Assembly: GCA_965242885.1 (NCBI GenBank)
Contig: CBDETH010000008.1
Location: 1,442,225-1,506,224 of the forward strand
Source: a bacterium
GTDB lineage: Bacteria; JAAXHH01
DNA length: 64,000 nucleotides
Reading direction: 5' to 3'
Below are positions 9,769 to 51,193 of the stretch, piece by piece; positions within the stretch are counted from its first letter, which is position 1, and each line of letters starts with the position of its first letter. Under the pieces are notes generated by a model, which saw nothing but the letters and a program-made list of their open reading frames with translations, was not told the origin of the DNA and did not search any database. The position numbers were made by a program, and so were the translations under genes.

Positions 9769-9878
9769 CGCCCGATCCGGCTTCCGAGCCAGGGAGATCC
9801 ACGGGGCGTGTCCCCGGGCCAGGCGGCCGGGGCGCGACCCCGCATCACCCGGCCTGAGCCGAGGAATGGAGTTTCTTC

Positions 9879-11764: not shown

Positions 11765-11804
11765 CTGTACTTCGTTTTACGGTACTTAGCTGAAGGAGTG
11801 GATT

Positions 11805-17969: not shown

Positions 17970-18170
17970 CGATAGTGCCTCCATCCAAAGCCGGAAGTAA
18001 CCCCATACCGGAATATGCGCGTGCCCTCAGTTGCTTGCAACGGGAAGATAGGTAATACCAGGGCTGCCACGTTTGTCGTATCGGCCGCGCCAGTTTGCCC
18101 TTGCACTTTTATCACGCTGATGCCATCATCTAACCACGCCCGGGCGACCGTACGGTACCGGGCTTTGCCA

Positions 18171-18230
18171 GCGCGCCACCTCGCGCGTGCGCCACCTCGC
18201 GCGTGCGCCACCTCGCGCGTGCGCCACATC
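18171..18230. repeat. 16-bp x3.75 tandem repeat (gcgccacctcgcgcgt) in the 5' leader of the dehydratase gene
   Basis: Units at 18171-18186, 18187-18202 and 18203-18218, with a partial unit at 18219-18230. The unit is not a multiple of 3, so it is non-coding. Confidence 0.85.
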
Positions 18231-18263
18231 AGACATGAAATCGGTGATCGGAAGGGTACAGCG

Positions 18264-20611: not shown

Positions 20612-20671
20612 GCTGACCGAGTTGGTTGAGTTCGACCTTCACTTAAAAGGATTTGACCGCACAGAACGGTT

Positions 20672-21541: not shown

Positions 21542-21607
21542 AGCCTCCCTCGCTCGCTATACTGCTAATCTACCACTATGGACGCGCATCCGCAACGCTG
21601 TCCGGCG

Positions 21608-22915
21608 TCACTGTTTCTTGATTTCGATATTGCCGTTCGTCGTTTCGATCCTGATCGTGTCGCCGCCGCCGTTGATGTCGCCCCGGACCCTGGCCTGGCC
21701 GCCGCTTCCGTATCCGTATACCCGTGCCCATGTCGAATTGCGGCTGCCGATGTTGTCGTTACCGTCGATGTCGAATTCCGAATACACGCGGTAGTCGCGG
21801 CGTTTCCAGAATCCTGAAACACCGAGATCGACCGTGGCGTCGATAGTCGCCGCCAGGTCTTCCGGCAGATAGACCGTCACTTCGCCGCCGGTCGATTCAA
21901 GATGGCAACTGCGATCGACTGAGGGGTCTGTTCCGCCAAGTGCGACATTGAGGTCGCCCCCCGAGGTCTTTGCCGTCACGCCGCCCTGTGCGTTTTCAAT
22001 CTGGATGTCCCCGCCCGTGGTCCTGACCGTGACGGTTCCTCTGGCGTTTTCGATGTCGATGTCCCCGCCTCCGCTTTCGGCATCCACGCCATCCATCGCG
22101 TTTTCGATCTGGATATCGCCCCCCGAAGTTTCTATCGACAACCTGCCCGATGCGTTTTCGATGTCGATATCTCCACCGGACGACGTCGCCGTCAGCTTGC
22201 CGGCCGTGTTTTCGATCTCGATGTCTCCGCCGGATGTCCTGACATCCACGTCCCCATCGGCGTGTTCGATCTGGATATCGCCCCCGGAGGTCTGCACTAC
22301 CGTCCTTCCGCCGGCGTTTTCAATCCGAACGTCCCCCCCGGACGTTTTCATCCTGGAATCCGCGTCGCTGCTTTCCAAACGGATATCGCCTCCCGACGTG
22401 CGGACGTCGACGTTCGACTCGCGGATGTTCCCCATGACCACGTCGCCTCCCGACGACCGGGCGCGGACGTCACCTCGCAGGTCATCGATTACGATATCGC
22501 CGCCGGAGGCTTTAAGATCAAGATGGTAGCGTTCGGGGACCCGCACCGTGATACTTACGGTTACTCTGTTCCGCCGATTCGAATCCGGGCCGTCCACGCT
22601 GATGTGCACGTCATCGTCCCTTTTTTCCGTTCTGACCTCGATGTCGTCGAAGGCCCTGCGCGCCCGGCCTTCGTCTAAGAACTCCGACCGTTTTTCAACC
22701 GTCACGTTCACTTCGCCCTTCGCCCAACTGCTGATCTCAATCGATGCGAACGCGTTGTCCGTCGTCAGCGTACCCCCGGATTTCACCGGGAAGCTGTATT
22801 GGGACTGTTCTACGTAGTCCGCGCCGTCACGCATAAACTTTGTCTCCTGTGCACTGCTCGTATACACAGCGGATATTGAGGCGCAAATCAGCGCCGCCAT
22901 CCCCAGCGATCTCAT
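21608..22915 (-). CDS. DUF4097-family beta-strand-repeat protein, paralog 3
   Basis: Repeated SGGDIxIEN units. The ATG at 22915 (MRSLGMAALICAS...) has a strong SD gggagggg 4 nt upstream; the ORF frame extends to 22966 with a TTG. Confidence 0.6.
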   Translation of the reverse strand: MRSLGMAALICASISAVYTSSAQETKFMRDGADYVEQSQYSFPVKSGGTLTTDNAFASIEISSWAKGEVNVTVEKRSEFLDEGRARRAFDDIEVRTEKRDDDVHISVDGPDSNRRNRVTVSITVRVPERYHLDLKASGGDIVIDDLRGDVRARSSGGDVVMGNIRESNVDVRTSGGDIRLESSDADSRMKTSGGDVRIENAGGRTVVQTSGGDIQIEHADGDVDVRTSGGDIEIENTAGKLTATSSGGDIDIENASGRLSIETSGGDIQIENAMDGVDAESGGGDIDIENARGTVTVRTTGGDIQIENAQGGVTAKTSGGDLNVALGGTDPSVDRSCHLESTGGEVTVYLPEDLAATIDATVDLGVSGFWKRRDYRVYSEFDIDGNDNIGSRNSTWARVYGYGSGGQARVRGDINGGGDTIRIETTNGNIEIKKQ

Positions 22916-23028
22916 AGCCCCTCCCGTGATCATGGAAACGTCGCGTCGATGTGTGCTGAACTGCAACTACCTATAAGACTGTGGGGAAGGGGAAAATGTT
23001 GCGTGCGAGACAAGGATTTCCCGGTTGC

Positions 23029-25223: not shown

Positions 25224-27221
25224 ATGAGCGTACGCCAGCGGTCTTCCGCGCCGTCCGGAAAGCCGGATTCCCATCCTCCCGGTACGGGGCCTCCCGCCCG
25301 GCATGGCGGACTGGCGTCGGGCATGACGCTCCGGGCGGTGGGTCTCGGCCTGGGACTCTCCGTGTTCATGGCGTGGTGGGTGGTGCATTCCGCCTTCGAA
25401 GCTCATTCTTCCTACCTTTCCATTACCCACTTGCCCATGGCGGCGCTCTTCCCCTTCATGCTGGTCGTCTTCGTCATAAACGGCCTGTTGAAGCGTTTCG
25501 CGCCCACGCGGATCTTCACCGCGCCGGAACTGATCATCATCTTCTTCATCGTGTTCACGGCCTCGGCCGTCCCGGGATGGGCCTTTACCACCTACTGGGT
25601 CGCCATCCCATCCATCCCCCACTACTACGCCAATTCCGAGAACAGATACGTCGAGTTGTTCTTCGAGTACCTGCCGACCTGGCTGATCGTCCCCGACGAA
25701 CGGCGGGCCGTGCACTGGTTCTACGAGGGCCTGCCGTCTACGGGTATCATTCCCTGGCGGGACTGGATCATCCCCATGAGCTGGTGGGGTACCTTCTTCC
25801 TGGCCCTCTTCTTCGCCAGCGCATCGCTCATGGTGATCCTGCGCAAGCAATGGATCGAAAGGGAGCGGTTGACCTTCCCGCTGGCCCGCGTTCCCCTGCT
25901 GCTCGTCGAGGATGACGACAGCGGTTCCGTGCTGCCCCGGATCGCCCGGTCCAGGGTGTTCTGGTACGGTTTTTCTATCCCCCTCTTCGTCATCCTGTGG
26001 AATATCGTCTCGTACTGGGACTTCGTGCCGCCCATCAAACTGGGCGGCGATTACCGCATCCCGATCACCCTGGCCGAATCCTTCCCCCCGATACAGTTCA
26101 AGATCAGTTTCGCTTTCATCGGCATCGGCTTCTTCACGAACCTCAATATCCTGTTCAGCATCTGGGTATTCTTCCTGTTGGCCACAATCCAGATCGGCAT
26201 CATGAGCCGGTTCGGCATTCCGAAGACGACCGAGATCGTCACGGCGCAGCACCTGGGCGGTTTTTTCATGTACACGCTCTTCGGACTCTGGATGGCGAGA
26301 CGCCACCTATACGACGTGGTGCGAAAGGCCATCGGCCGGGGACAAGACATTGATGATTCGGGGGAGTTCTTCTCGTACCGGACCGCCATGGCGGGCGTGG
26401 TGTTCGGCATCGTCTACATGTTTTTCTTTCTGATCAGCATGGGCATGTCATTTGCCGCCGCGGCCACGCTGCTGGCCACCTGCATGCTGCTCTTTATCGG
26501 GGTCACCCGCGTAGTGGCGGAAGCCGGTCTGATCTACCTGGACCTGCCCTACAACGCCCACGAATTCACGGTTTTTTCCTTCGGGTCGGCGAACCTGCAC
26601 CGGGCCGACCTCACGATACTGACGCTGTCCCAGACCTTCTCGAGGAACTGGCGGACACTGGGCATGTGCGCCATGGCACACGTCAACAAGATGGGCGACG
26701 AGATCGGCGGGGCCCGGCGCGGGATTTTCCCGGTCATCGTCTCGGCCCTCCTCATGGCCGCGGTCATATCGGTCGTCTATACGGTGTTCCTGGGTTACGA
26801 TACCACCGGAGCGGACGGGTTCGAGGACGCCTTCGGCAATGCAAAGAGAGGCTACGAGACGCTGGCGACGTGGATCAACAACCAGACGCAGTTGACCGGC
26901 GGCGAGTACATGGGCCTGGGGGTCGGCGCGCTCACCGCCTGGCTGCTGATCCTGGCCCACCACAACTTCCACTGGTGGCCGCTGCATCCCATCGGCTGGG
27001 CGGTCGCCAAGACCTGGGCCATCGGGATGATCGCCACTTCGATTTTCATGGTCTGGCTCATCAAGGCCATAATCATGAAACTGGGCGGCACGAGACTCTA
27101 CCGCCAGTCGCAGCCCTTCTTCATCGGCATGCTGGTGGGGTACGTACTGGGTGTCGCACTTTCCTACGGCGTGGATGTGATCTGGTTTCCCGCCTCGGGG
27201 CATATCGTGGAGACGTGGTAA
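25224..27221 (+). CDS. Polytopic integral membrane protein, uncharacterised family, paralog A (665 aa, ~14 predicted TM)
   Basis: Many hydrophobic helices. Conserved blocks shared with paralogs B and C: ILRKQWIERERLTFP, VAEAGL, WWPLHPIG, GQPFFIG. Confidence 0.6.
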   Translation: MSVRQRSSAPSGKPDSHPPGTGPPARHGGLASGMTLRAVGLGLGLSVFMAWWVVHSAFEAHSSYLSITHLPMAALFPFMLVVFVINGLLKRFAPTRIFTAPELIIIFFIVFTASAVPGWAFTTYWVAIPSIPHYYANSENRYVELFFEYLPTWLIVPDERRAVHWFYEGLPSTGIIPWRDWIIPMSWWGTFFLALFFASASLMVILRKQWIERERLTFPLARVPLLLVEDDDSGSVLPRIARSRVFWYGFSIPLFVILWNIVSYWDFVPPIKLGGDYRIPITLAESFPPIQFKISFAFIGIGFFTNLNILFSIWVFFLLATIQIGIMSRFGIPKTTEIVTAQHLGGFFMYTLFGLWMARRHLYDVVRKAIGRGQDIDDSGEFFSYRTAMAGVVFGIVYMFFFLISMGMSFAAAATLLATCMLLFIGVTRVVAEAGLIYLDLPYNAHEFTVFSFGSANLHRADLTILTLSQTFSRNWRTLGMCAMAHVNKMGDEIGGARRGIFPVIVSALLMAAVISVVYTVFLGYDTTGADGFEDAFGNAKRGYETLATWINNQTQLTGGEYMGLGVGALTAWLLILAHHNFHWWPLHPIGWAVAKTWAIGMIATSIFMVWLIKAIIMKLGGTRLYRQSQPFFIGMLVGYVLGVALSYGVDVIWFPASGHIVETW

Positions 27222-27354: not shown

Positions 27355-27792
27355 ATGAGCGTGGAACAGGTCATGCCCGACGAGGCGGCCAGGCTGGTCG
27401 AATCCGAGGGGTACACATACATCGACGTCCGGTCGGTTCCTGAATTCGACCAGGGCCATCCCGCGCCGGCCGTGAACATCCCCTTGCTGCACGCGGACGA
27501 GCAGACCGGGCAGATGACGCCCAACCCCGATTTCGTGCGGGTGATGAAAGCAAATTATGCTGAGGATTCGAAGCTGGTACTGGGTTGCCGCACCGGCCAG
27601 CGTTCCAATCACGCCGCCGAACTGCTGCAGTCGATGGGATACCAATCGGTCGTCAACATGCGCTGCGGGTTCAGCGGCGAGATGACGCCCTTCGGCCAGG
27701 TGGTCAATCCGGGATGGGAGGAAGTGGGCCTGCCGGTGAGCCATGACAGCGGTGAGGGCGTGAGTTACGCGTCGCTCGCGGCAAAAGGGTGA
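27355..27792 (+). CDS. Single-domain rhodanese (sulfurtransferase)
   Basis: Active-site loop LGCRTGQRS; rhodanese fold; SD aaaggag 7 nt upstream. Confidence 0.8.
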   Translation: MSVEQVMPDEAARLVESEGYTYIDVRSVPEFDQGHPAPAVNIPLLHADEQTGQMTPNPDFVRVMKANYAEDSKLVLGCRTGQRSNHAAELLQSMGYQSVVNMRCGFSGEMTPFGQVVNPGWEEVGLPVSHDSGEGVSYASLAAKG

Positions 27793-27852: not shown

Positions 27853-28974
27853 CTATCCCCGCAACACCTCTTCGTAGTAGGCTTCGTATTTCGGGACCAC
27901 GGCCTCTTCCGCGAAGTTATCCAGCACCCGTTGCCGGGCCTTCCGTCCGACCGCCTCTCGCAAGCCGTCGTTTGCAAGCAGGTCCGTGGCGTGCCGGGCC
28001 ATCTGCCCGATGTCGCCCACTTCGGTGATGTAGCCCGTTTCCCCGTGGCGTACGAGTTCCGGCAGGCCGCCGGCGTTGGCGCCGATCACCGGGACGCCGC
28101 AACTCATCGCCTCCAGGGCCGACAGGCCGAAGCTCTCCTGTTCGCTGGGAAGCAGGTACAGGTCGGAACAGGAAAGAATCCGGTCCACTCCCTCCTGCTC
28201 TCCCATAAAGACCACGCCGTCCTCCAGGCCCAGTTCCCGGGCCAGTTCCTGCATGGGGATGCGCTCCGGACCTTCCCCCACGAGCAGCAGCTTGCACTTG
28301 ACTACTCGCCGCACCTCCGCGTACATGCGGATGATGTCCCCGATGCGCTTGACCGGCCGGAAATTCGAGACGTGCGCGATGACCTTCTCGTCATCGTCGA
28401 CGAAATTGCTGATGTCGCAGTGGCCGTCCCCCCTGCGGAACCGTTCGACGTCGACGAAATTGGGGATCACACGGATGTCCTTATCGATGTCGAAGAGGGA
28501 CAGCGTGTCGCGCTTGAGGGACTCGGAGACCGCCGTGACCCCCTGGCTTTCCTCGATGCTGAACCGGGTGATCCGGTAGAAGGACTTGTCGCTTCCCACG
28601 AGGGTGATATCGGTGCCGTGCAGGGTCGTGATGACCTTGACGTCCCGGTCGCGCAGCATGTGCCGCGCCAGGAAGGCGCAGGTGGCGTGGGGCACGGCGT
28701 AGTGCACGTGCAGGATATCCAGATTCGCCTCGGAGGCCACGTCCGCCATTTTCGCCGCGAGCGCGAGGGTGTAGGGCGGGTACTTGAACAGCGGGTAGGG
28801 CATGACCTCCACGTTGTGGAAGGAGATGTTCTGGCTGTATTCCTGCAGGCGGAAGGGGATCGAATAGCTCACGAAATGGACCCTGTGCCCCTTCCGGGCC
28901 AGTGCCTGTCCCAGCTCGGCGGCGATGGCGCCGCTTCCTCCGTAGGTGGGATAGCAGGTGATGCCGATGTTCAT
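27853..28974 (-). CDS. bshA: N-acetyl-alpha-D-glucosaminyl L-malate synthase (GT4 glycosyltransferase)
   Basis: N-terminus MNIGITCYPTYGGSGAIAAELGQALARKGHRVHFVSYSIPFRL is near-colinear with Bacillus BshA ([43 protein letters not shown]); GT4 C-terminal domain. Confidence 0.8.
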   Translation of the reverse strand: MNIGITCYPTYGGSGAIAAELGQALARKGHRVHFVSYSIPFRLQEYSQNISFHNVEVMPYPLFKYPPYTLALAAKMADVASEANLDILHVHYAVPHATCAFLARHMLRDRDVKVITTLHGTDITLVGSDKSFYRITRFSIEESQGVTAVSESLKRDTLSLFDIDKDIRVIPNFVDVERFRRGDGHCDISNFVDDDEKVIAHVSNFRPVKRIGDIIRMYAEVRRVVKCKLLLVGEGPERIPMQELARELGLEDGVVFMGEQEGVDRILSCSDLYLLPSEQESFGLSALEAMSCGVPVIGANAGGLPELVRHGETGYITEVGDIGQMARHATDLLANDGLREAVGRKARQRVLDNFAEEAVVPKYEAYYEEVLRG

Positions 28975-29702
28975 CGGTTTCCGCCTCTGCCCACGAAATG
29001 GGCCAGGGGATCGTCGACCTGAAGGTACTCCCGGACGACGAAAGGCTCTCCGTACCGCGCGCCGATCAGCTGTCCGTAGTAACGGCTCTGGGCTTCCACC
29101 TCCTCGAGGAACTCGGGCCGGCTGATGAAGGTCTCCGGCTCGGTAGAGTCCGGGTCGTGGAACTGCGACCGGTGGGCCTTCACCGCCTCGATTTTCCGGC
29201 TGAACGTCGACGTGATGTCGACGATAAAGGAAGGCCGGGGTTCCCGGTAGCGGTGGTGGGTAAGGTAGAAGACCACCTTCCGGGGCCTGAAGGCCGGGTG
29301 GTCCGTCTCGAGTTTCTCCAGACCGGCCAGAAAGGCCGCGTCCCGGGCCAGCCGGGCGGTCGCCCCGTGATCGGGATGGCGGGCGACCTCGTGAGGTACG
29401 AGGAGCATATCGGGCTTGTACCGGCGAATGGCGTCGATGAGGGCGTCGCGGTGCGTCGGGCTGGTGCCGACTCGGGCGTCCGGCAATTCGAGGTTCAGCC
29501 TTTCGGACAAGCCGAGCACTTCCGCCGCCGCCGCCGCTTCCCCTTTCCGTCCGTCGACCGTTCCCCGGGTACCCATCTCGCCCAGGCTCATGTCGACGAT
29601 ACCGGTGGCATATCCCAGGTCGGCGAACCGGATCATCAGTCCGCCGCAGTGCAGCTCCACGTCGTCCGGGTGCGGGGATACGGCAAGCACATCGAGTTTC
29701 AT
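28971..29702 (-). CDS. bshB1: N-acetyl-alpha-D-glucosaminyl L-malate deacetylase (PIG-L/LmbE family)
   Basis: LAVSPHPDDVELHCGG ... YKPDMLLVPHEVARHPDH motifs of LmbE-type deacetylases; colinear with BshB1; 4-nt overlaps with both bshA and bshC. Confidence 0.75.
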   Translation of the reverse strand: MKLDVLAVSPHPDDVELHCGGLMIRFADLGYATGIVDMSLGEMGTRGTVDGRKGEAAAAAEVLGLSERLNLELPDARVGTSPTHRDALIDAIRRYKPDMLLVPHEVARHPDHGATARLARDAAFLAGLEKLETDHPAFRPRKVVFYLTHHRYREPRPSFIVDITSTFSRKIEAVKAHRSQFHDPDSTEPETFISRPEFLEEVEAQSRYYGQLIGARYGEPFVVREYLQVDDPLAHFVGRGGNR

Positions 29703-31333
29703 AACGGGGTCATCCTGTGTCTGAAGTCCGTTTCGTCCGTGGCCTCGATGAGGGTATTCATGACGTCGAAACCGTGAAGGGCGACGTACTGCCAGATGTT
29801 GGCCACCCGTTCCTGGAGGTGCCCGTTGGGATACAACAGGCGGTCCGCCCGCATGATCTGTCCGCGCATGACCCCGTCCGCCTTCTTCAGGGCGCGGAGC
29901 GTCTTTTCTTCCAATCTGCCCAGGGCGAAGCGGGTCTTCCGCTCCGAGGCCTCGACGATCCGGCTCAGCCCGGGGTCGATGGAAGTCACGTGCCCTTTGA
30001 GGTTTCTGTAGTGGGCTTCCACGTCGCCCCGTGCGGCCCGGAGACCCTCGGTGACCGGTACCGGCATCTCTTCCCGGAGTTTCCGGTCGACCACGGATTC
30101 GATGCCCTGGACGAAATGGGAGATCGCGAGGCCGTGTTTCTCCAGGATCCGGGCGGTCCTCGCGCCCACCAGCGTATGGGACGCGCGGGGATAGACCACG
30201 GGGAAGGGCAGGCCGAACTGCCGGTAGACCCCGCCGAGCTGGCCATAGTAGGCGATTTCCGCCGGACCGCCGATATAGGTCAGCGTCGGAAACAGCGTGT
30301 CCTGCACCAGGGGCCGGGTGATGACGTTGTGCGTGAACCGACCGGGCGTATCCTTAAGTATCCCTAGCAGTTCCTCGCCGCTAAAGGAGAGGCCTTCGTC
30401 CCGGCTGCTGAACCGCCCGTCCTCGTAGCGCAGGGCATTGCGCTGCCCGTCCTGGTACAGAAACAAGTTCACCGCGTCCTGGGACCGGGAGACCTGAGGA
30501 TGAAACCCGGCGTGCTCCAGATCGCGGGACGCCTCCAGGACCGAACGGGTAGTCGTGAGCGGTGCGCGGATTTCCTGCTCGAAAACGGGACGCATAAGGG
30601 GTTTCAGCGCCGGGTCGGTGGGGTCGACGAGGACCAGGCCATGGTCCCGGAACAGCAGCGTCATGAGACGAGCGAAGGCATCGGACAGCGAAGTCCCGGC
30701 CGTACAGTGCCGCCGAAGCGCCTCGATGGCGGACGGGCGGTATTCCGAGTCGGGCAGGGCCTCGGCGAACTGCCCGAGCAGCGTTTCGATTTCGGGTCCG
30801 AGCAGGCGGTCGCTCGCGGACCGGCGATCGGCGGGGTCGTCGGGGCTCAGTTCGAACCTGAGGGCGTCCCCGTCCGTCCGGCAGACGTGGACATGGTTGA
30901 TTTCGGCGTAGTCATGGTCGTCGGCGGCCATCCAGAAGACGGGCACGGCCCGCACGCCGGTTTCCTCAGAGACCCTTTTCGCCAGCTTGACCGCCGTTAC
31001 AGCCTTGTAGATGGTGAACAGGGGACCGGTCAACAGGCCCGTCTGCTGTCCGGTGGATACGACGAAGGTATCGTCCCCGGCGAGGGAACGGGCGTTGGCC
31101 AGGACCGTCTCGTCCGCTCCGAACCGGCCGTTCTGGACCTCGAGAATCCTGGCGAGCGCCTTTCTCGGCGGCGGCGCGGCGCGGGACTGGACGGCCTCGA
31201 TCATGCGCGGCCATACATCCGGATCGCGTGGATCGTGGGTGTAGAAAGGCCGCAACGACTCGAAGTCTTCGAGAAAGGTATGCAGCAGGTGGTCCGGCAA
31301 CACCTGTCGGTAGTCCACTGCATGATTGTTCAT
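29699..31333 (-). CDS. bshC: Bacillithiol biosynthesis cysteine-adding enzyme
   Basis: BshC signature VVSTGQQTGLLTGPLFTIYKAVTAVKLAK; about 545 aa from ATG 31333 (MNNHAVDY...). The ORF frame extends upstream to 31507 without homology. Confidence 0.75.
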   Translation of the reverse strand: MNNHAVDYRQVLPDHLLHTFLEDFESLRPFYTHDPRDPDVWPRMIEAVQSRAAPPPRKALARILEVQNGRFGADETVLANARSLAGDDTFVVSTGQQTGLLTGPLFTIYKAVTAVKLAKRVSEETGVRAVPVFWMAADDHDYAEINHVHVCRTDGDALRFELSPDDPADRRSASDRLLGPEIETLLGQFAEALPDSEYRPSAIEALRRHCTAGTSLSDAFARLMTLLFRDHGLVLVDPTDPALKPLMRPVFEQEIRAPLTTTRSVLEASRDLEHAGFHPQVSRSQDAVNLFLYQDGQRNALRYEDGRFSSRDEGLSFSGEELLGILKDTPGRFTHNVITRPLVQDTLFPTLTYIGGPAEIAYYGQLGGVYRQFGLPFPVVYPRASHTLVGARTARILEKHGLAISHFVQGIESVVDRKLREEMPVPVTEGLRAARGDVEAHYRNLKGHVTSIDPGLSRIVEASERKTRFALGRLEEKTLRALKKADGVMRGQIMRADRLLYPNGHLQERVANIWQYVALHGFDVMNTLIEATDETDFRHRMTPL

Positions 31334-33876
31334 GTAACCGGCCTTGTTCGGCGCTTTTCCATGATGAGCAGGTAGGCGGGCAGCGCGACCAGGGCTGTCG
31401 CCAGCGTGGCGATCTCTCCCACGTTGGCCATGATCCCGAAGGAATGCAGGCCCCGGTTGGACGTGAGCATGAGCGAGGTGTACCCGATCAGCGTCGTGGA
31501 CGAGCACATGACCAGGGCCGCGCCCGTATGCTGTACCATATTACCGATGGAACCCCGTCCGTCAAGGCGGTAGCGTTGATACAGGTTCACGCTGTAGTCT
31601 ACCCCGATGCCCAGCGTAGTGGGTATGACGATGAAGTTGAAGAAGTTCACCTTGATGTCGAAGAGCGCGATGAAGCCGCCCATAACCAGCATGCCGCCCA
31701 GCAGGGACGCCAGGATGACCACCGACGCGTGGATGCTTCGGAAGGCCAGTACGAGGAGCGTGATCACGCCCACGAAGCAGGCGATGGTGGCGATGGGCCC
31801 GTCGCTGTCCACGGCCTTCAGCATGTCGGCGAAGACCACGGCCTCTCCGGAAGAATAGATGACTTCATCGTCCGGAAGTTGGTTGGAACGGACGACCTCC
31901 GCGAACCGGATCAGGTTCCGGCCGTTCCAGAGCCCGGCGTCCGACCGCGGGTAAACGTAGATCAGCCTGCCCACCGTCCCGTCCCGCTCCTCGTAGGGCC
32001 GCGTTAGCGCTTCGGGCAGGTCGTCCACGGTGATCCCGTCCAGGCTCAGGTTGTCGCGGAAATCGTTGATCTTCGCGAGCTGGTCGGGCGGTATGCCGAG
32101 TTCGTCGGGCGGATTCGTGTCGAGCATGTACTCGATGTCCCAGAGGACGTCGATCTTGTCCTCCTGGTCCTCCGGCAGCAGGTCGTAAATGGTCCGGACC
32201 CGGTCGATGGTCGGATTGGGCACTTCCTTTTCGGCCTCTTTCTTGTCCAGCACGGCCCGGCGTATGCCCGGCACCTGGTCCAGGCGGTCCGCCAGGATGA
32301 CGGCAGGCGACTGCGATATGCCGAAGAGGGCGTTGACGCGGTGGTTGAGGATCCGCTCGTAAGTGTCGCCCCGCGGCTCGTTGCGCAGCTTCGAGAAGTC
32401 GTACTCGAAGGAGTTCGGAAGCCACCACACCAGCAGGGCGGCGCCCAGCACGACCAGGGAGAAACTCGTGCCCACCACGGCCCGCGGCTTCTTCTGCACC
32501 AGGTTGGCGAGACGGCTCATCGACCTGCCCCGGGAAACCTTCCGGGTCCAGGTCTTCCGTCCGAAGGCGGTGCGGTCCCAGAGCATCAGCAGCGCCGGCA
32601 GGATCGAGAAGGTCGAAAGCCAGCACAGTAGCATGCCCAGGCCGCCGATAAACCCGAAATGGTTGAAGCCCCGGAAATCGGTGATCATGAGGGTACCGTA
32701 GGCCAGGCCGGTGGACGCCGCCGAGGTGACCGTCGCCGTGAGCGTGTTCCGGAAGGCGATCTGCACGCCGTCCCGGGCGTTCTCTCCCCGCAGCCGCTCT
32801 TCCTTGTACCGGGACATCAGGATCAGGCCGTAGTTGATGCCGTTCCCAATGATGATGGCGCCCAGGAAGGCGGTCTGCATGTTCAGGTAGCCGATGCGGA
32901 AGTAGGTCAGGCAGAACGTCCAGAGGATGCCGACGACCACGACCAGCGTGATGTTGATGACCGGGACGATTGTACGGAAGTAGAGGAAGATGGCCAGGGC
33001 GACCAGTGACAGCGTGACGCCGGCCGACGTGAAGATCTCCCGGTTTACGGACTCGTACTGATCGAGGATCAAGCGGTACTTGCCGGTGAGCCCGACCTTC
33101 AGCGACGGGTGGTAGGACGCGGGTTCGAGGCCTTCCGCGATGGCCAGGACCCGTTCGCACAGGTCTCGCGAGAAGGACACGCCGGTCGACGACCCGAAGG
33201 GTTTCAGCACCATGACGAGAAACTGCCCCTGCTCGTCCTGTCCCGTGAAATAACCGTCGACCCACTTGTCCAGCTTCTCCGACGCCTGTTTCTCGTACTT
33301 CTCCTCCAGGTCGCTCACGGTGAACGGTTCGTCTTCCGTCTCCAGGCCGAGGTCTTCCTCGGAAACGAAAAGGGGATTCTGTTCCAGTTTCGTCTTCAGG
33401 ATCTGCCGGCTCAGCCGGCTCTGGATCTCTTCCAGGTCCTCCAGGTCGGCGTACAGGTACTTGTGGTTTTCGTAGAACCGCTTTTCGTCGTCCACCCTGT
33501 ACTCGATGTAACGGACATATCCTTCCGGGAGATCGGACCGGAGCCGGCCGGCGAGGTCGTCGGCGTACCGCCGGGCGGCGGCCAGGTCTTCCGTTTCAAT
33601 TACGACCGTCAGGTTGCCGATGCCGCCGACACGCTCCGTGAGCCGGTGTATGTCGTCGACGCTCCGGTAGCCTTCGGGGAGCAGTTCGACAAAGTCGGTT
33701 TTCAGCTGAAGTCTGGAGGCGAAATGGACGGAAAGCAGGGCGGAAAGCAGCGCGAACAGCAGGACCTTTGCCGGATGGCGGCAGATGAAGGCGATGTACC
33801 TGTTCAGGAAGCGGTCTAGGGCGGCTCTGGTTTCGGCCTTCACGGTGCATTCCTCGTGTGAAACGCGCGCATCCAA
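31330..33876 (-). CDS. MMPL / RND-superfamily exporter (HpnN-like, 12-TM with two large periplasmic loops)
   Basis: 848 aa. Two 6-TM bundles (SSD-like), each preceded by a large soluble loop. Its stop overlaps the bshC start (ATGA). The start codon is uncertain: TTG at 33876 or GTG at 33840. Confidence 0.7.
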   Translation of the reverse strand: MDARVSHEECTVKAETRAALDRFLNRYIAFICRHPAKVLLFALLSALLSVHFASRLQLKTDFVELLPEGYRSVDDIHRLTERVGGIGNLTVVIETEDLAAARRYADDLAGRLRSDLPEGYVRYIEYRVDDEKRFYENHKYLYADLEDLEEIQSRLSRQILKTKLEQNPLFVSEEDLGLETEDEPFTVSDLEEKYEKQASEKLDKWVDGYFTGQDEQGQFLVMVLKPFGSSTGVSFSRDLCERVLAIAEGLEPASYHPSLKVGLTGKYRLILDQYESVNREIFTSAGVTLSLVALAIFLYFRTIVPVINITLVVVVGILWTFCLTYFRIGYLNMQTAFLGAIIIGNGINYGLILMSRYKEERLRGENARDGVQIAFRNTLTATVTSAASTGLAYGTLMITDFRGFNHFGFIGGLGMLLCWLSTFSILPALLMLWDRTAFGRKTWTRKVSRGRSMSRLANLVQKKPRAVVGTSFSLVVLGAALLVWWLPNSFEYDFSKLRNEPRGDTYERILNHRVNALFGISQSPAVILADRLDQVPGIRRAVLDKKEAEKEVPNPTIDRVRTIYDLLPEDQEDKIDVLWDIEYMLDTNPPDELGIPPDQLAKINDFRDNLSLDGITVDDLPEALTRPYEERDGTVGRLIYVYPRSDAGLWNGRNLIRFAEVVRSNQLPDDEVIYSSGEAVVFADMLKAVDSDGPIATIACFVGVITLLVLAFRSIHASVVILASLLGGMLVMGGFIALFDIKVNFFNFIVIPTTLGIGVDYSVNLYQRYRLDGRGSIGNMVQHTGAALVMCSSTTLIGYTSLMLTSNRGLHSFGIMANVGEIATLATALVALPAYLLIMEKRRTRPVT

Positions 33877-34079: not shown

Positions 34080-36074
34080 ATGGCCTCAGTACAGCAAAGT
34101 GTTTCCGCCTCCGCTGTCCGTGCGACCGCGACCCGGATCATTACGCCGCGGTCCATTCTCCTGGGCCTGCTGAGCGTCGTCCTGATCTCCCTCATCGTCC
34201 CCTATTTCCAGTACACCATGGCCTCGTCCCAGCTGGGCGCGGATCATCTCCACATCGGCGCGCTGTTTCTGGCCTTCGGGTACCTGGTCGTTTTCAACGT
34301 GGTGCTGGCCAGGTGGAAGAAGGACTGGGCCCTCACGCCCCACGAGTTCGTCATACCCCTGGTCATGGGCATGGCGGCATCGGGGCTGACGACCAACGGC
34401 ATGGGCGCCCCGTTCATCTCCACGCTGATGGCACCCTACCTGCTGGCGACGCCCGAGAACCAGTGGGCCGAGTACTTCTACCCGTACCTGCAACCCTGGG
34501 CGACGGTCACGAACCAGGGCAACGCCCTCACGTGGCTGGTAGACGGTATACCGCCCGGCGTGTCCATTCCCTGGAGCGTGTGGGGCATTCCGCTGTTCTG
34601 GTGGCTGACTTTCATCGTCCCGGTCATCTTCATGGGCCTGTGTCTCGTGGTCATCCTCAGGCGGCAGTGGGTCGAACACGAGAAGCTTGTCTTTCCCATG
34701 ATGCAGATCCCCCTCGCCTTCACCCGCGGCATGGAGTCGCCGAGCCGCGTCCCGGCCTTTCTCTCGGAGAAGCGGTTCTGGATCGGCTTTTCCATCCCCT
34801 TCTGCGTGATGATGTACAACATTGTCGGGTTCTTCACCCCGGTCGTGCCCCAGTTCCCCTATTTCGGGTCGGCGCCGCCCATCGTATTCGGCGAGGGATT
34901 CCCCCCGCTGGAAATCAACTTCCGCCCGGCCATCCTGGGCATTTCCTATTTCGTCAATTTGGATGTCCTCGCCGGTTTCTGGGTGTTCTACATGATCGGG
35001 ATCATCCAGGTGGGCATCGCCCACCGGATCGGGTACGACATCCCGGGACGGGACAACTACACCTCGATCCATCCCATGCTGGACTGGCAGAACATGGGCG
35101 CGTTCATCCTGTTCGTGGGATGGGGGCTGTGGCGGGCGCGGTTTCACATCCGCGCCGTGTGCTCACAGGCCTTCGGCCGCCGGTCGGACCTGGATGACTC
35201 GGACGAGATGCTGCCCTACCGGGTCGCGGTTTTCGGGTTCATCGGAGGCTTCGTCTACGGGGTGGTCTGGCTGAACCAGCTGGGCATGGGCGTACCCATT
35301 GCCGTGTTCCTCCTCGCCGGGGTATTCATCATCTACATCGGCGTATCCCGCATCATCGCCGAGGCCGGGCTGCCCTACGTGCGTTCGCCCATGATCGCCC
35401 AGGTGCTCGTGTTCTATTCGGTCGGGTCGGCCAACCTTTCCATGTCCACCATGACGGCCATGGCCCAGACGTACGGACCCGTCAGCGAGATCAAGTCTAC
35501 CTTCATGCCCGCCTTCATGCAGGCGGCCAAGCTATCCGAGATCGGCACGCGCTGGCAGCGCGGCCTGGGTTGGTCGCTCCTGTCCGCCGCGGTGATCGGC
35601 GTGGTGATCTCGCTGGTCTGGACGATCTACCTGGGGTTCGACCTGGGCACGCGCCAGTTCACCAACGGCTGGTGGTTCGGCCGGATCGGATCGACCATCC
35701 CCTATAATGAAACGCTCACCAAGATGCGGGACCCCTTCGGGCCCGACACGTCGCGGCTCATGTTCTTCCTGGTGGGCGGTGCGCTCATGTTTCTGCTCAT
35801 GACGCTGCGGGCCCGGCTGCCGGGCTGGCCGCTGCATCCCCTCGGGTTCTTCCTTTCATACTCCTGGCCCGCCCGGGCGATCGTCTCGTCCATGTTCGTG
35901 TGCTGGGTCATCAAGAGCATCATGATGTGGGTCGGCGGCATCGAACTGTACCGGAAGGGGCAGCCCTTCTTCCTGGGCCTGATCTTCGGCGTGGTCACCG
36001 GCGTGGTCATCTCCATGTTCGTCGACTACGTGTGGTTTCCCCACGCAGGTCATCACATCTACGGGATAGACTAG
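34080..36074 (+). CDS. Polytopic integral membrane protein, uncharacterised family, paralog B (664 aa)
   Basis: Colinear with paralog A (ILRRQWVEHEKLVFP, IAEAGLPY, GWPLHPLG, GQPFFLG). Its stop TAG lies 1 nt before the GTG start of the downstream fusion gene. Confidence 0.6.
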   Translation: MASVQQSVSASAVRATATRIITPRSILLGLLSVVLISLIVPYFQYTMASSQLGADHLHIGALFLAFGYLVVFNVVLARWKKDWALTPHEFVIPLVMGMAASGLTTNGMGAPFISTLMAPYLLATPENQWAEYFYPYLQPWATVTNQGNALTWLVDGIPPGVSIPWSVWGIPLFWWLTFIVPVIFMGLCLVVILRRQWVEHEKLVFPMMQIPLAFTRGMESPSRVPAFLSEKRFWIGFSIPFCVMMYNIVGFFTPVVPQFPYFGSAPPIVFGEGFPPLEINFRPAILGISYFVNLDVLAGFWVFYMIGIIQVGIAHRIGYDIPGRDNYTSIHPMLDWQNMGAFILFVGWGLWRARFHIRAVCSQAFGRRSDLDDSDEMLPYRVAVFGFIGGFVYGVVWLNQLGMGVPIAVFLLAGVFIIYIGVSRIIAEAGLPYVRSPMIAQVLVFYSVGSANLSMSTMTAMAQTYGPVSEIKSTFMPAFMQAAKLSEIGTRWQRGLGWSLLSAAVIGVVISLVWTIYLGFDLGTRQFTNGWWFGRIGSTIPYNETLTKMRDPFGPDTSRLMFFLVGGALMFLLMTLRARLPGWPLHPLGFFLSYSWPARAIVSSMFVCWVIKSIMMWVGGIELYRKGQPFFLGLIFGVVTGVVISMFVDYVWFPHAGHHIYGID

Positions 36075-36075
36075 C

Positions 36076-39000
36076 GTGTATTCGCGGATATTCGGTTTTT
36101 TCTTCCTCGCCGTGGGCGTCCTGTTGTTCCTCGCCGTGGCCGTCGCCGGCCCGGCCTGGGTGACAGAGCACGTGATCCTCAGGATCGTCTCCATTCCGGA
36201 AGACGTGCCGCCCAGGCCCCTCGAGGAAGCGCCGGTGTCCTGGGAGGAAGTTTCCGAAATCGTTACGCGGGAGCGTGTGGAGGCTCATGTCCGGGCGATG
36301 AGCGAGAACCCGTCGCGCGTCGTCGGCTATCCGGGAAACCGGGCGGCCATGGAATACGTGGTCGATGCCTTCCGTGCCGGAGGCCTGGCAGAGGTCACGG
36401 TCGACACCTTCACGGTATCCTCGCCCGTCGACCATGGTTTCACGCTGACCGTGCACGACGCCGTGGAGACCGAGATACCGGTGTATCAGTTCTGGCCCAA
36501 CCTGGTCCGGCTGAATTCCTTTCCTGACGGGATCCGGGGACCCCTGCACTACGGCCAGCGGGGCGAATTCCAGGCCTTCAACGGGAAAGAGATCGAGGGC
36601 AGCATCGTCCTGGTCGATTTCGACGGGCGCGACCAGTACCTCAACGCGCGGATGCTCGGAGCCCGGGCCGTGCTGTTCCACGACAGCGGCCCCGGTTCCG
36701 TGACCAACAACCAGGCCCAGCGCAAGATCCTGGACGTGCCCGCCGACGTGCCGCGCTTCTGGGTCCCGGACCCCCACGCCGCCGCTGTCCTGGCGGCCGC
36801 GCGGTCCGGCGATGTCGAAGTGACGATCCGTGGACACATGACGTGGGAACGGGCCGAGACCTGGAACGTCATGGGGTGGATACCGGGCCGGGACGAACCG
36901 CTGCCGGGGAGCGACGGCACGGAGAAATGGAAAGACCGGATCGTCGTGCTGTCGGCGTTCTACGACGCCATGTCGGTCGTACCCGGTCTGGCGCCGGGCG
37001 CCGAGAGCGCGGGGGGTATCGCCGCCATGCTGGAGCTGATGGACGTGCTCCGGGCCCATCCGCCGGGATACACCGTGCTGTTCCTGGCCACGTCCGCCCA
37101 TTTCCACGGGCTGCAGGGCGTAAACGACTTCCTGGACCGGCACCAGCGAAAGGACGAGTTCTTCCTGGAACGGATCCCCGAAGAGGACCGGATCCCCTTC
37201 GACCTGTTCCTGGGCCTGGACCTCACCAGCAGGGCGGACCAGGTCGGCCTGTTCAGCTACGGCGATTTCATCTTCTTCACCTCGAATCTGGATATCCTGT
37301 ACGAACCCTATGCGGACCGGTACCTGAATTACGCGCGCAAGGCCGGGGTCCACGATGATGAGGATAGCCGGACGGCCTATCTCAACACGCTGACGCACCC
37401 GCTCCGGTCGCAGGAAAGCTTCATGCCCGCCGGTCCCGCCTTCGACCACGAGATGGTCACGCTCGCCGGGCTCCACGGCATGACCTTCGCCACGGTAAAC
37501 GACAACAGACTCCTCATCGACACCCCGAAGGACCGGATCGAGTACGTCGATTTCCCCAACCTGGTCCGGCAGATCCGAACGCTGGGCACGCTGCTGCCGG
37601 CCATGCTGTCCGATCCCGTGGCCTTCGACGTGGACGAGTCGATTCGGCTCAAGGACGAGGGCCGCGACATTGAAGGCCGGGTCCTCGAATTCGACCGAAC
37701 GGTGGATTTCTTCAAGCCCAATACCCCGGTCTCCGACGCCCTGGTCGTCTACGAGCCCGGATACCAGAGCCACAGCGGCGTTCGTGGGTTCATGGTTACC
37801 CACGCCGACTCGCTGGGGCATTTCCGGCACTCCATGGTCCGGTTCCCCCGGGGACCGACGGAACTGCGCAGTTACGGCCTCGCCGCCGACGGCCGGATCG
37901 TGTACGCCCCCGACCTCGGTGAAGAAGGCAACGCCACCTTTCCCCTCGCGGTGCCGAACTCATCCAAGGTGAACAATACCATACAGGTCCTCTTCCCCTG
38001 CGAGGAGATCAACCTCTTCGATATCGTGGACCCCGGCGTCTTCGTCGCCCTCGACAACCTGACCGTACTCGGCCGGGACAACAGCCCGCTGCGCAAGTAC
38101 GGCGCGGCCTTCGTGGAAGACCAGAGTTTCTTCGGCAACTGGATGACCAACGCCGCGGTGGTCTTCGCCCGGCCCGAGGACCGGGTCAAGATGTTCATGA
38201 GCTCGGGTCCCCGGGGTGTCAAGTACCTGCTGACCAACACGCCCGAATCGTGGCTCGACGAACCGCCGGTAAGCATCTCGGACGACGCCATGGCCCTGGC
38301 CCAGGGACGGGGATTCACGGCGGACCAGGGCCTGATCCTCTACCCCTTCTACCAGAGCGCCCTGGACCTGTGGTCGCTCAACCGGGCCCGCCTGATGAAA
38401 CTGGAGGATCACGGCGTGACCAACGCCCGGGCCGCCGAGCTGCACGAGGAGAGCACCGAAGCGCTTCGGGCCGCCCGGGAGGCCCTGGAGAACCGCCGAT
38501 ACGACGCCTTCGCCGCGCGGTCGAGAGAGGCGTGGGGCTTCGAGGCGCGGGCTTATCCCGACGTGCGGTACGCCGCGGACGATACGGTGGACGGCATCGT
38601 GTTCTACTTCATGCTGCTGGTCCCCTTCTGTTTCTTCCTCGAACGGCTTTTCTTCGGTTTCACGGACATTCGGAAGCGGCTGGCCTCGGTGGGCGTCATC
38701 TTCGCGGCGGTCTTCATGCTGCTGCAGAACGTGCACCCCGCCTTCCAACTCAGCCTGACGCCGTACATGGTCTTTCTCGCCTTCCTCATCCTGGCCATGG
38801 CGCTGATCATCATCACCATGATCGTCACCCGGTTCGACACCGAGATGAAGAACCTGACCCGGTCTGCGGCCGGCCTCCACGAGGCGGACATCGGCCGGCT
38901 GAGCGCCACGGCCGTGGCCATTTCCCTGGGGATATCGAACCTGCGCAAGCGGAAGATGCGCACGGCGCTGACCGCGGTCACGCTGACCCTGCTGACCTTC

Positions 39001-40644
39001 ACCGTCTTGTCCTTCACTTCCTTCCGGACCGGCATCCAGTTCTATACGCTGGACCGCGAAAACACCCCGCCGTACGACGGCGTCCTCATGCGCAGCCTGT
39101 CGTGGCACTCCCTGCCCACGTCCTTCCTGCCCTACGTGGAGAACGCCTTCGAAGACCAGGCGGACGTGGTACCCCGGTCCTGGTACGAGCCGGAGGACAT
39201 GGTCAGCCCCTATATCGACCTGCGTGTGCGGGGCAAGGGGACCGCCACCACGGTACAATCCATCCTGGGACTGCACGCCGACGAACCGGCCGTCACCGCG
39301 CTGGACCGCTACCTGGTGCCGGGCGGACGGTGGTTCGCCCCGGACGAAAGGGCGGCCTGCCTGCTGCCCACGGAACTGGCCGAGCGGCTGGACGTGGGGC
39401 CGGAGGACGTGGGTACGGCGGAGGTGGAGATCCTCGGTGGACGCTATACGGTGATCGGACTGCTCGATTCCGAGGGGTTCGACGCCTACCGGGACATGGA
39501 CGACGAGAGCATCATGCCCGCCAGCTTCTCCATGACACGCTCGCTTACCGATATGGACATCGAAGTGTTCATGTCCACCATCCAGGCCTCCGAACACCTG
39601 CCGTCCCGCAACGTGCTGGTCCTGCCCTACCGGCAGACGCTCGACCTGAACGGGTCCACGCGGTCCGTGGCCATCGCGGGGTTCTCAGGCGGCGAAGAGC
39701 TCCGCGATTCCGTTGAGGCCTTCATGTCGCGGGTCCTCCTGGCCGTGTTCGTCGGCATGGAAGACGAAGTGAGGGTCTACAGCTCCCTGGGCGCTACTTC
39801 GGTCTCGGGCCTGGCCAACCTGATCATCCCGGTGCTCATCGCGGCGTTCCTGGTGTTGAATACCATGATGGGCGCCGTGTTCGAACGGTTCCGGGAAATC
39901 GGCGTGTACAGCGCGGTCGGGCTGGCCCCGAACCACGTCGCCGCCCTGTTCATCGCCGAAGCCGCCGTATTCGCGACGCTCGGGGCCGTCTTCGGTTACC
40001 TGTCCGGCCAGATCATCACCATGGGGCTCTCGCAATGGGACCTGCTGGGTGGCATGTCGCTCAACTATTCCTCCCTTTCGACCGTTTACGCCACGTTGGT
40101 CGTCATGGCCATCGTCTTCCTGTCCACCCTCTACCCGGCGAAGAAGGCCGCGGACATGACGGTAGAGGACGTGACGCGGCGCTGGTCGCCCCCGCCGCCC
40201 GACGAAGACGACTGGTGCTTCGAGTTCCCGTTCACGGTGACCGTACCCGAAGCGTTGCCGCTGTCGGGCTACCTGAACCACATCTTCCAGACCCATGAAG
40301 ACAGTTCGGCAGAGGACTTCGTCGCCGAGGGGACCACGCTCGACGCGATACCGGGGGATACCTACGACACGTATCACGTGGCATCCACCGTCTGGCTGGC
40401 GCCGTACGACCTCGCCATCAGCCAGGACGTGCGGCTTGAACTGGAGCCCGTGCTTCACGAAAGACTGTACCGCATCCTGATCGTGATCCACCGCCGCAGC
40501 GGTGACCTGGCGCAATGGCAGACGATCAACCGGCGGTTCTTCACCGTATTGAGGAAGCGGTTTCTGGTATGGCGGACCCTGGCAGAGCCCATAAAGGCGC
40601 GGTACCGGGATATCAAAGCCTTCGATCGCCACACGGCCCTGTAA
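36076..40644 (+). CDS. Fusion protein: N-terminal TM + M28-peptidase-like/PA ectodomain + two FtsX-like permease modules (1522 aa)
   Basis: PA domain (GSIVLVDFDGRDQYLNARMLGARAVLFHD). M28-like core (VVLSAFYDAMSVVPGLAPGAESAGGIAAMLELMDVL...LATSAHFHG). FtsX/MacB-type TM1 (LRKRKMRTALTAVTLTLLTFTVLSF). C-terminal FtsX domain (GAVFERFREIGVYSAVGLAPNHVAALFIAEAAVFATLGAVFGYLSG). Confidence 0.7.
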   Translation: MYSRIFGFFFLAVGVLLFLAVAVAGPAWVTEHVILRIVSIPEDVPPRPLEEAPVSWEEVSEIVTRERVEAHVRAMSENPSRVVGYPGNRAAMEYVVDAFRAGGLAEVTVDTFTVSSPVDHGFTLTVHDAVETEIPVYQFWPNLVRLNSFPDGIRGPLHYGQRGEFQAFNGKEIEGSIVLVDFDGRDQYLNARMLGARAVLFHDSGPGSVTNNQAQRKILDVPADVPRFWVPDPHAAAVLAAARSGDVEVTIRGHMTWERAETWNVMGWIPGRDEPLPGSDGTEKWKDRIVVLSAFYDAMSVVPGLAPGAESAGGIAAMLELMDVLRAHPPGYTVLFLATSAHFHGLQGVNDFLDRHQRKDEFFLERIPEEDRIPFDLFLGLDLTSRADQVGLFSYGDFIFFTSNLDILYEPYADRYLNYARKAGVHDDEDSRTAYLNTLTHPLRSQESFMPAGPAFDHEMVTLAGLHGMTFATVNDNRLLIDTPKDRIEYVDFPNLVRQIRTLGTLLPAMLSDPVAFDVDESIRLKDEGRDIEGRVLEFDRTVDFFKPNTPVSDALVVYEPGYQSHSGVRGFMVTHADSLGHFRHSMVRFPRGPTELRSYGLAADGRIVYAPDLGEEGNATFPLAVPNSSKVNNTIQVLFPCEEINLFDIVDPGVFVALDNLTVLGRDNSPLRKYGAAFVEDQSFFGNWMTNAAVVFARPEDRVKMFMSSGPRGVKYLLTNTPESWLDEPPVSISDDAMALAQGRGFTADQGLILYPFYQSALDLWSLNRARLMKLEDHGVTNARAAELHEESTEALRAAREALENRRYDAFAARSREAWGFEARAYPDVRYAADDTVDGIVFYFMLLVPFCFFLERLFFGFTDIRKRLASVGVIFAAVFMLLQNVHPAFQLSLTPYMVFLAFLILAMALIIITMIVTRFDTEMKNLTRSAAGLHEADIGRLSATAVAISLGISNLRKRKMRTALTAVTLTLLTFTVLSFTSFRTGIQFYTLDRENTPPYDGVLMRSLSWHSLPTSFLPYVENAFEDQADVVPRSWYEPEDMVSPYIDLRVRGKGTATTVQSILGLHADEPAVTALDRYLVPGGRWFAPDERAACLLPTELAERLDVGPEDVGTAEVEILGGRYTVIGLLDSEGFDAYRDMDDESIMPASFSMTRSLTDMDIEVFMSTIQASEHLPSRNVLVLPYRQTLDLNGSTRSVAIAGFSGGEELRDSVEAFMSRVLLAVFVGMEDEVRVYSSLGATSVSGLANLIIPVLIAAFLVLNTMMGAVFERFREIGVYSAVGLAPNHVAALFIAEAAVFATLGAVFGYLSGQIITMGLSQWDLLGGMSLNYSSLSTVYATLVVMAIVFLSTLYPAKKAADMTVEDVTRRWSPPPPDEDDWCFEFPFTVTVPEALPLSGYLNHIFQTHEDSSAEDFVAEGTTLDAIPGDTYDTYHVASTVWLAPYDLAISQDVRLELEPVLHERLYRILIVIHRRSGDLAQWQTINRRFFTVLRKRFLVWRTLAEPIKARYRDIKAFDRHTAL

Positions 40645-47817: not shown

Positions 47818-47825
47818 GCCGCCTA

Positions 47826-49475
<1,650 letters not shown>

Positions 49476-49497
49476 ATATCGGAAGCGATGGTCGGAT

Positions 49498-51117: not shown

Positions 51118-51193
51118 TTCCTTCATCCCCACGGGTCAAACGCGTCCCGGAAGGGCCGTAAAACCCGGTTCACCGAATGCCACCTGTTTATAG

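Follow-up and report, generated by a model that had tools for sequence, protein, structure and literature searches.

Does a membrane transporter whose gene runs into a bacillithiol (BSH) biosynthesis operon carry BSH out of the cell? The question is raised by a locus at positions 27853–33876 of a 64,000-nt stretch of bacterial DNA (contig CBDETH010000008.1, hereafter the window), where four co-directional open reading frames (ORFs) follow one another on the minus strand in the order MMPL, bshC, bshB1 and bshA. An earlier note on this DNA had inferred from the arrangement that the MMPL/RND-type transporter exports or traffics BSH or a BSH conjugate. We arrive at a different reading, to which we assign a probability of about 0.7: the locus is an ordinary BSH operon that is probably co-transcribed with a neighbouring lipid-type RND transporter. 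The transporter itself probably has no direct part in BSH metabolism.

Bacillithiol genes and host lineage

We scored the predicted proteins against NCBIfam equivalog models and Pfam domains, and all three bsh products reached 1.4–2 times the curated equivalog cut-offs. The product of bshA (27853–28974, minus strand, 373 aa), a GT4 N-acetylglucosaminyl-malate synthase encoded last in the unit, scored 549 bits with TIGR03999 (cut-off 274) over residues 1–371 of 373; the next best family, TIGR03088, reached 140 bits and MshA 88 bits, and Pfam identified both the N- and the C-terminal GT4 domain. For bshB1 (28971–29702, minus strand, 243 aa), encoding the N-acetylglucosamine (GlcNAc)-malate deacetylase, we obtained 258 bits with TIGR04001 (cut-off 182) against 45.5 bits with the BshB2 model, whose cut-off is 195, and 87 bits with the PIG-L domain PF02585. 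The cysteine-adding enzyme of BSH synthesis, encoded by bshC (29699–31333, minus strand, 544 aa), scored 502 bits with TIGR03998 (cut-off 266), 360 bits with PF10079 (Rossmann-like_BshC) and 98 bits with PF24850 (CC_BshC). The BshA, BshB1 and BshC assignments of the earlier note thus hold when checked with hidden Markov models (HMMs), and bshC-bshB1-bshA is almost certainly a BSH biosynthesis operon. From equivalog homology to characterised proteins of Bacillus subtilis and Staphylococcus aureus, BshA is expected to couple UDP-GlcNAc with malate, BshB1 to strip off the acetyl group and BshC to attach cysteine.

All three junctions of the four-gene unit are 4-nt ATGA stop/start overlaps (31330–31333 for MMPL/bshC, 29699–29702 for bshC/bshB1 and 28971–28974 for bshB1/bshA), in agreement with the earlier description. 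The bshC start is placed here at ATG 31333 and not at GTG 31507, the position chosen by the ORF finder; homologues are mostly 544 aa long with the N-terminus MNxHAVDYRQV. Wherever the gene is intact, the relatives keep the bshC/bshB1 overlap, even at BshC identities of 47–54%. Outside this set, bshB1 of one relative (L004:14216–14940; OZ252103.1, a complete-chromosome metagenome-assembled genome) lies in two frames and was recovered as two tblastn segments, which reflects either an assembly frameshift error or a pseudogene.

The GC content of the window is 0.58–0.67, and the nearest genomic loci (90–97% protein identity) are labelled Candidatus Latescibacterota; the host is therefore not a Firmicute, and the high-GC, non-Firmicute genome that had been proposed is confirmed. 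Some near-identical proteins carry the NCBI label Gemmatimonadota. The lineage is uncultivated and represented by metagenome-assembled genomes only. BSH biosynthesis genes are established outside Firmicutes in Chlorobi, Bacteroidetes and Acidobacteria (Hiras et al. 2018, PMC6282198), and 'machinery for bacillithiol biosynthesis' was recorded in 2015 in single-cell genomes of Latescibacteria (PMC4454575). Given these reports from Latescibacteria and the FCB (Fibrobacteres–Chlorobi–Bacteroidetes) group, the presence of bshABC here is expected rather than surprising, and we predict from the genes that this organism produces BSH.

The same three equivalog-recognised enzymes are encoded in B. subtilis in the arrangements mgsA-bshB1-bshA and panE-bshC, with bshA and bshB1 co-transcribed and bshC alone located separately (PMC5790435). 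The statement that bsh genes are dispersed in Bacillus is thus correct for bshC and incorrect for bshA and bshB1, which form one operon in B. subtilis. The present locus differs from this system in its single bshC-bshB1-bshA unit with a deeply conserved bshC/bshB1 ATGA, in the absence of the mgsA, pan and Spx context and in its high-GC, Latescibacterota-type host. Closer in lineage is the BSH/N-methyl-BSH pathway of Chlorobaculum tepidum, a non-Firmicute and FCB relative of Latescibacterota (PMC6282198). Its genes are scattered (CT0548, CT1419 and CT1558), unlike those described here, and no orthologue of its N-methyl-BSH synthase NmbA was found in the window.

The candidates compared with PDB sequences for an NmbA function were three class-I S-adenosylmethionine (SAM) methyltransferases at 2151–2945 (+), 3013–3861 (+) and 5491–6612 (−), which surround a rhodanese gene at 3985–4704 (−). 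The best match to CtNmbA (PDB 9RI2), given by the 2151–2945 protein, has E=1.6e-9 over 123 residues and falls short of the published criteria (E<=1e-20, >80% coverage), so that no NmbA is called; the same protein matches the methyltransferase in PDB 9SOT/9SOV with E=1e-61. Among the scanned window ORFs, we recognised none of the BSH-utilising genes NmbA, Bdr/YpdA, bacilliredoxins, FosB and DinB-type transferases.

The MMPL/bshC overlap and its transcription

The transporter gene (31330–33846, minus strand) encodes an HAE3-like MMPL/RND inner-membrane protein of 838 aa when read from GTG 33846; a start at TTG 33876 would give 848 aa. The GTG is probably the true start and the TTG less likely, because a GAGGAA Shine-Dalgarno sequence lies 5′ of the former and the nearest homologue, P0002, has 837 aa. 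At its 3′ end, the stop codon TGA (31332–31330) lies within the ATGA that also holds the bshC start codon ATG (31333–31331).

Comparison of this junction with its closest relatives indicates how the overlap arose. Compared with loci L003 and L008, the junction has lost 83 nt between direct AGCG repeats, leaving a scar at 31351–31355 (minus strand), as seen both in the alignment (A2) and in the raw junctions. The lost segment held the last ~17 MMPL codons, the stop codon and most of the ~52-nt spacer between MMPL and bshC. After the deletion, the MMPL frame continues through what used to be the leader of bshC until it meets the TGA contained in the ATGA. Only the window and the 97%-identical locus L001 carry the deletion, and L002, L003, L004 and L008 retain the segment. 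The MMPL/bshC distance is accordingly −4 nt in the window and in L001, followed by 61, 52, 43, 52, 75, 21, 219, 22 and 130 nt in the other relatives, the longest spacers being those of L086 (219 nt) and L090 (130 nt). On this alignment evidence, the MMPL/bshC overlap is the scar of a recent deletion. The L086 spacer (L086:10545–10763) is AT-rich, and arrays of the repeat GAATCGGC in inverted orientation flank it (CGAATCGGCGAATCGGCGAATCGGCG ... CGCCGATTCGCCGATTCG); it resembles either a long hairpin or a small repeat element that has inserted.

The loss of the MMPL C-terminal tail together with the spacer has physically fused the transporter gene to the bsh operon. With the stop of the transporter ORF now lying within the start codon of bshC, co-transcription of all four genes in this genome, from a promoter upstream of MMPL, is very probable. 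A sigma-70-like candidate, TTGACA-17-GATATT, is located just upstream of MMPL at 33913–33885 (minus strand); it has 10 of 12 consensus matches, is the best of three promoter-like sites in the region (shuffled sequences averaged 1.3) and is likely the promoter of the four-gene unit. Transcription from it would almost certainly read on into bshCBA. Ribosomes that finish MMPL may re-initiate on bshC at the ATGA, and termination-reinitiation may thereby set the level of BshC translation. The overlaps being real, a single minus-strand transcription unit with MMPL as its first cistron, as had been claimed, is likely in this genome.

Alternatively, the genes could be adjacent and transcriptionally independent, with bshCBA expressed mainly from a promoter inside the 3′ end of MMPL and the ATGA devoid of regulatory consequence. 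A weaker promoter-like site, TTGACG-16-TAATAT (9 of 12 matches), does lie there at 31565–31538, ~205 nt upstream of bshC, and bshC-proximal promoters must exist in L090 and L086, with their 130–219-nt spacers, and in the MMPL-less locus L089, with a 183-nt gap upstream of bshC. Three promoter-like sites against 1.3 expected is, however, not significant, and the 31565–31538 site belongs to the weakest class. No terminator-like hairpin separates MMPL from bshC, because no spacer is left to hold one, and an internal promoter would supplement read-through from MMPL and not replace it. We consider independent transcription improbable.

Adjacency and transporter relatives

The interpretation with the widest reach is that MMPL is a dedicated exporter of BSH, bacillithiol disulfide (BSSB) or BSH conjugates, for example mercapturic acids, to the periplasm or medium of a presumably diderm host, and that it is co-expressed with the bsh genes for this export. 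Under this interpretation only, it would deliver a low-molecular-weight thiol to the periplasm, the role played in E. coli by the glutathione/cysteine exporter CydDC (PMC5790435), an ABC transporter with which it shares neither sequence nor mechanism. Room for such a function exists. According to a 2018 review, export and import of BSH are an open question and mercapturic acids leave the cell by unidentified means (PMC5790435), which bears out the remark in the earlier note that no dedicated BSH exporter is known. A literature search combining bacillithiol with MMPL, exporter or transporter found no paper that makes such a link.

Survey of related genomes showed that the adjacency is not unique to this one. 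Ten further loci, which represent nine or ten relatives distinct in sequence, have the same order MMPL-bshC-bshB1-bshA, at MMPL identities of 66–97%: L001–L004 and L008 (90–97%), L081/L082 (73%), L090 (73%), and, at 66%, L083 together with a JGI contig, L086 and L087. BshC identity in these loci extends down to 46–49%. Both this recurrence, with its mostly short spacers, and the MMPL/bshC overlap of the present genome would be expected if transporter and pathway shared a substrate. The overlap, however, is the recent deletion described above, and the adjacency itself dissolves in related genomes. Many relatives share a common synteny, comprising a DUF6785 protein, a metallo-beta-lactamase (MBL)-fold protein, a GAF histidine kinase, in some a response regulator, and a GAF-HD protein, followed by MMPL and by bshC-bshB1-bshA with a GNAT acetyltransferase gene. 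Locus L089 and a contig from sample ERZ1305449 have MBL, GAF kinase, GAF-HD, bshCBA and GNAT in this order without MMPL; the closest MMPL in ERZ1305449 is 46% identical and located elsewhere. In assembly GCA_016209865.1, a 60%-identical MMPL (L084) keeps the upstream block and is followed directly by a GH113 gene, and bshCBA-GNAT (L091) lies on a different contig, where it is preceded by genes for a methyltransferase and a SAM hydrolase-type protein.

Outside the clade, we scanned metagenome contigs with a distant-BshC profile and collected 80 bshC loci whose BshC is 27–37% identical to that of the window; 43 of the 80 have at least 2.5 kb of upstream sequence. An MMPL-family HMM found no match in any of these loci, even at E<=10, and recovered all positive controls. 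In about a dozen of them bshB1 and/or bshA adjoins bshC, with bshC-bshB1-bshA clustering in roughly 10 of the 80, so that this lineage is not alone in grouping the three genes. In the reverse direction, bshC and bshB1 are absent from all 75 loci of MMPL homologues at 31–45% identity (Myxococcota, Bdellovibrionota and others), where the sole bsh-like matches are unrelated GT4 enzymes with 22–34% identity to BshA. A pairing of biosynthesis and dedicated exporter, as for MmpL4/5 with mycobactin or ApeX with petrobactin, should recur independently or show strict co-occurrence, and by these comparisons it appears to do neither.

The sensory block upstream of MMPL or the bsh genes in distant relatives (L081:3091–7727, L086:3012–7769, L084:2844–7985, L089:1255–5818 and L090:562–3068) contains the MBL-fold protein, the GAF histidine kinase, a response regulator in some loci and the GAF-HD(-GYP-like) protein. 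The MBL-fold protein has hydroxyacylglutathione hydrolase GloB as its best match (90 bits, cut-off 201), and a glyoxalase-II-like thioesterase near bsh genes is reminiscent of BSH-dependent GlxB. This block offers a basis for an indirect link, in which MMPL and bsh would form a co-regulated unit of the response to envelope or oxidative stress, selected for expression timing with no shared substrate; a lipid exporter might, for example, remodel the outer membrane while BSH buffers the cytoplasm. Gene order and short spacers conserved in the clade fit this idea, as do the B. subtilis bsh genes, which share operons with the loosely related mgsA and panE (PMC5790435). MMPL and bshCBA nevertheless separate freely, and the window lacks the block entirely, as do its five closest relatives. 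An indirect link of this kind is unlikely, though less so than the other alternatives considered here.

The GNAT gene that follows bshA in distant relatives encodes a protein of ~160 aa (L081:14116–14610, L087:10543–11025, L089:9608–10081, L090:9506–9997, L086:14439–14915 and L091:7142–7502); in L081, L089 and L090 the two genes overlap by 4 nt at the bshA stop. The window, L001–L004 and L008 have no such gene, the window clade having lost it. We rejected it as an MshD-like 'BSH acetylase': its similarity is generic and RimI-like (MshD model 21–29 bits, cut-off 163), and the window clade does without it. To our knowledge, no acetyltransferase that converts Cys-S-conjugates to mercapturic acids has been identified in BSH organisms.

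What the transporter carries is best approached through its own family. It scores 145 bits with Pfam MMPL PF03176 (cut-off 20.5) in two matched stretches and is thus a member of the MMPL/RND superfamily. It remains below the cut-offs of the narrower models, namely HpnN (TIGR03480, 298 against 752 bits; NF052374, 168 against 1100 bits), HAE3 (TIGR00921, 198 against 352 bits) and BstA. Hydropathy and an AlphaFold2 model (pLDDT 82.8, pTM 0.71) give an RND-type layout, in which two successive halves each consist of a transmembrane (TM) helix, then a soluble domain of ~220 residues, then a TM bundle. The best PDB sequence match to the family profile is Burkholderia HpnN (5khn, 150 bits; a second entry is 6WU0), followed by MmpL4/5. 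In a Foldseek search with the model, HpnN again ranked first (E=1e-27, TM-score 0.68), ahead of MmpL4/5, MmpL3, NPC1/NPC1L1/Patched and AcrB-type pumps.

Orthology to HpnN is ruled out by score, by the TM4 residue and by gene neighbourhood. In the profile alignment, the aspartate of the HpnN TM4 motif GVDF is aligned with the asparagine of GINY in the transporter. This aspartate we take to belong to the HpnN proton relay, where it is reportedly D344 in B. multivorans HpnN (Kumar et al. 2017). The transporter family instead has its invariant Asp-Tyr in GVDYSVN of the C-terminal TM bundle, at a position occupied by Ala-Phe in HpnN (alignment A1); a Thr-Thr motif in this bundle is common to both proteins. 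Charged and polar residues are conserved in the TM segments, which suggests that the pump is active and driven by protons. Pfam scans of ~45 ORFs within the 64-kb window identified no hopanoid genes (squalene-hopene cyclase, hpn).

The mycobacterial MmpL4/MmpL5 and Bacillus anthracis ApeX have the same fold (Foldseek E ~1e-25) and demonstrate that the class can export biosynthetic small molecules, often from genes beside the biosynthetic ones. They differ from the present transporter in sequence (16–18% identity) and in context, neither an MmpS-like partner nor siderophore genes being present here, and their substrates are amphiphilic, which BSH is not. As a small dicarboxylate of high polarity, BSH does not resemble the known substrates of the RND/MMPL fold, and this counts against its export by MMPL.

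Distant homologues provide further indications of the substrate. One of them, P0095, has 1139 aa and includes a fused PAP2_3 domain of the lipid-phosphatase type. Recurrent neighbours include GT4 enzymes (9 loci), CDP-alcohol phosphatidyltransferase/GtrA fusions (8), class-III aminotransferases (7), PAP2_3 (5), PMT_2-like proteins (5), LPG_synthase_TM (4) and polysaccharide deacetylases (3), and they point to membrane-lipid or glycolipid head-group metabolism. A conserved partner gene of MMPL was sought among 80 genome loci and none emerged; the pattern is a diffuse enrichment of lipid head-group enzymes in 3–9 loci each. Most likely, judged by sequence relatives and the modelled fold, the transporter moves a lipid or another amphiphile and is driven by the proton gradient.

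Taken together, BSH export is highly improbable. It draws on a conserved co-directional adjacency, on an acknowledged gap in BSH physiology and on the ability of MMPL-type pumps to export small polar-headed molecules such as siderophores. Against it, the overlap that had suggested the idea is confined to the window and one relative, bshCBA persists without MMPL in the same synteny, none of the 80 and 75 loci of other lineages repeats the pairing, and the closest characterised relatives of the transporter carry hopanoids, mycolates, sterols and lipophilic siderophores. The inference that MMPL traffics BSH is therefore not upheld.

In the reading that we prefer, the transporter would export a lipid or amphiphile across the envelope, probably without a direct role in BSH metabolism, and its position beside the bsh genes would reflect local synteny inherited within one clade. 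Besides the promoter-like site inside the 3′ end of MMPL, three points weigh against this reading. (i) The adjacency is always co-directional over a fairly deep clade, with spacers of 21–75 nt in 7 of the 10 further loci and an overlap in L001, and such clade-wide, short-spacer adjacency is also what an operon under selection would look like. (ii) No conserved lipid-synthesis gene adjoins MMPL in the window or in close relatives, so that the lipid substrate is deduced from distant homologues and fold alone. (iii) MMPL-type RND pumps can carry non-lipid small molecules, for example siderophores in the case of MmpL4/5 and petrobactin in the case of ApeX (PMC5596346).

Neighbouring genes and implications

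Downstream of the unit and convergent with bshA, a single-domain rhodanese (27355–27792, plus strand, 145 aa; PF00581, 57 bits) ends 60 nt from the bshA stop. It occupies the same position in L001, L003, L004, L008, L081 and L090, but no rhodanese gene follows the bsh genes of L086, L087 or L089; we regard it as a syntenic neighbour and do not claim operon membership. The earlier note had described the locus as flanked by two rhodaneses and embedded in a theme of low-molecular-weight thiols and sulfur transfer. The first rhodanese does adjoin bshA. The second, at 3985–4704, is 23 kb away and of the 'rhoda_near_glyco' type (117 bits, cut-off 145). The 'FTR-like' protein at 429–830 (+), also invoked, is 27 kb away and has a sub-threshold FtrB-like match (38.7 bits, cut-off 160); this Cys-rich ORF of 133 aa contains CPC and CAC motifs, with cysteine where the FtrB double-selenoprotein family has selenocysteine. 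The proposed theme thus comes down to one adjoining rhodanese and two distant, weak items, and we do not retain it as operon context. A PALP enzyme at 17976–19223, considered in the same connection, is of the threonine/serine dehydratase type and not a cysteine synthase.

The locus is bracketed by paralogous DUF6785/DUF6784 membrane proteins at 25224–27221 (+) and 34080–36074 (+), ~34–37% identical to each other's orthologues; the second is divergent from MMPL and lies beyond the promoter candidate. It is immediately followed by a 1522-aa protein with Peptidase_M28, MacB_PCD and FtsX domains (36076–40644, +), an arrangement that is syntenic across the clade. Elsewhere in the window, tandem tungsten-type aldehyde:ferredoxin oxidoreductases (7873–9768 and 9858–11708, both +) precede a pyridine nucleotide-disulfide oxidoreductase with a rubredoxin-reductase-like C-terminus (11790–13175, +). 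Three consecutive DUF4097 'toastrack' proteins of 440, 294 and 452 aa are encoded at 19316–22966 (−). A hut cluster at 47259–53721 (+) comprises urocanase, histidine ammonia-lyase, imidazolonepropionase-like and other amidohydrolases and is followed by a creatininase-family gene; the window also carries other housekeeping genes.

If MMPL did carry BSH, it would answer whether and how BSH leaves the cytoplasm, the question left open in the 2018 review (PMC5790435). It would be the first exporter of the bacillithiol system, its gene sharing an operon with bshCBA across a clade of Latescibacterota, and would widen the substrate range of MMPL pumps. The evidence assembled here conveys a cautionary message instead. 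What resembles translational coupling by design, a stop/start overlap, can be left behind by a small, recent deletion, and adjacency says little about shared function when its conservation is confined to one clade. Independently of the transporter, the complete bshC-bshB1-bshA operon in an uncultivated lineage of the FCB group lends support to a wide distribution of BSH outside Firmicutes.

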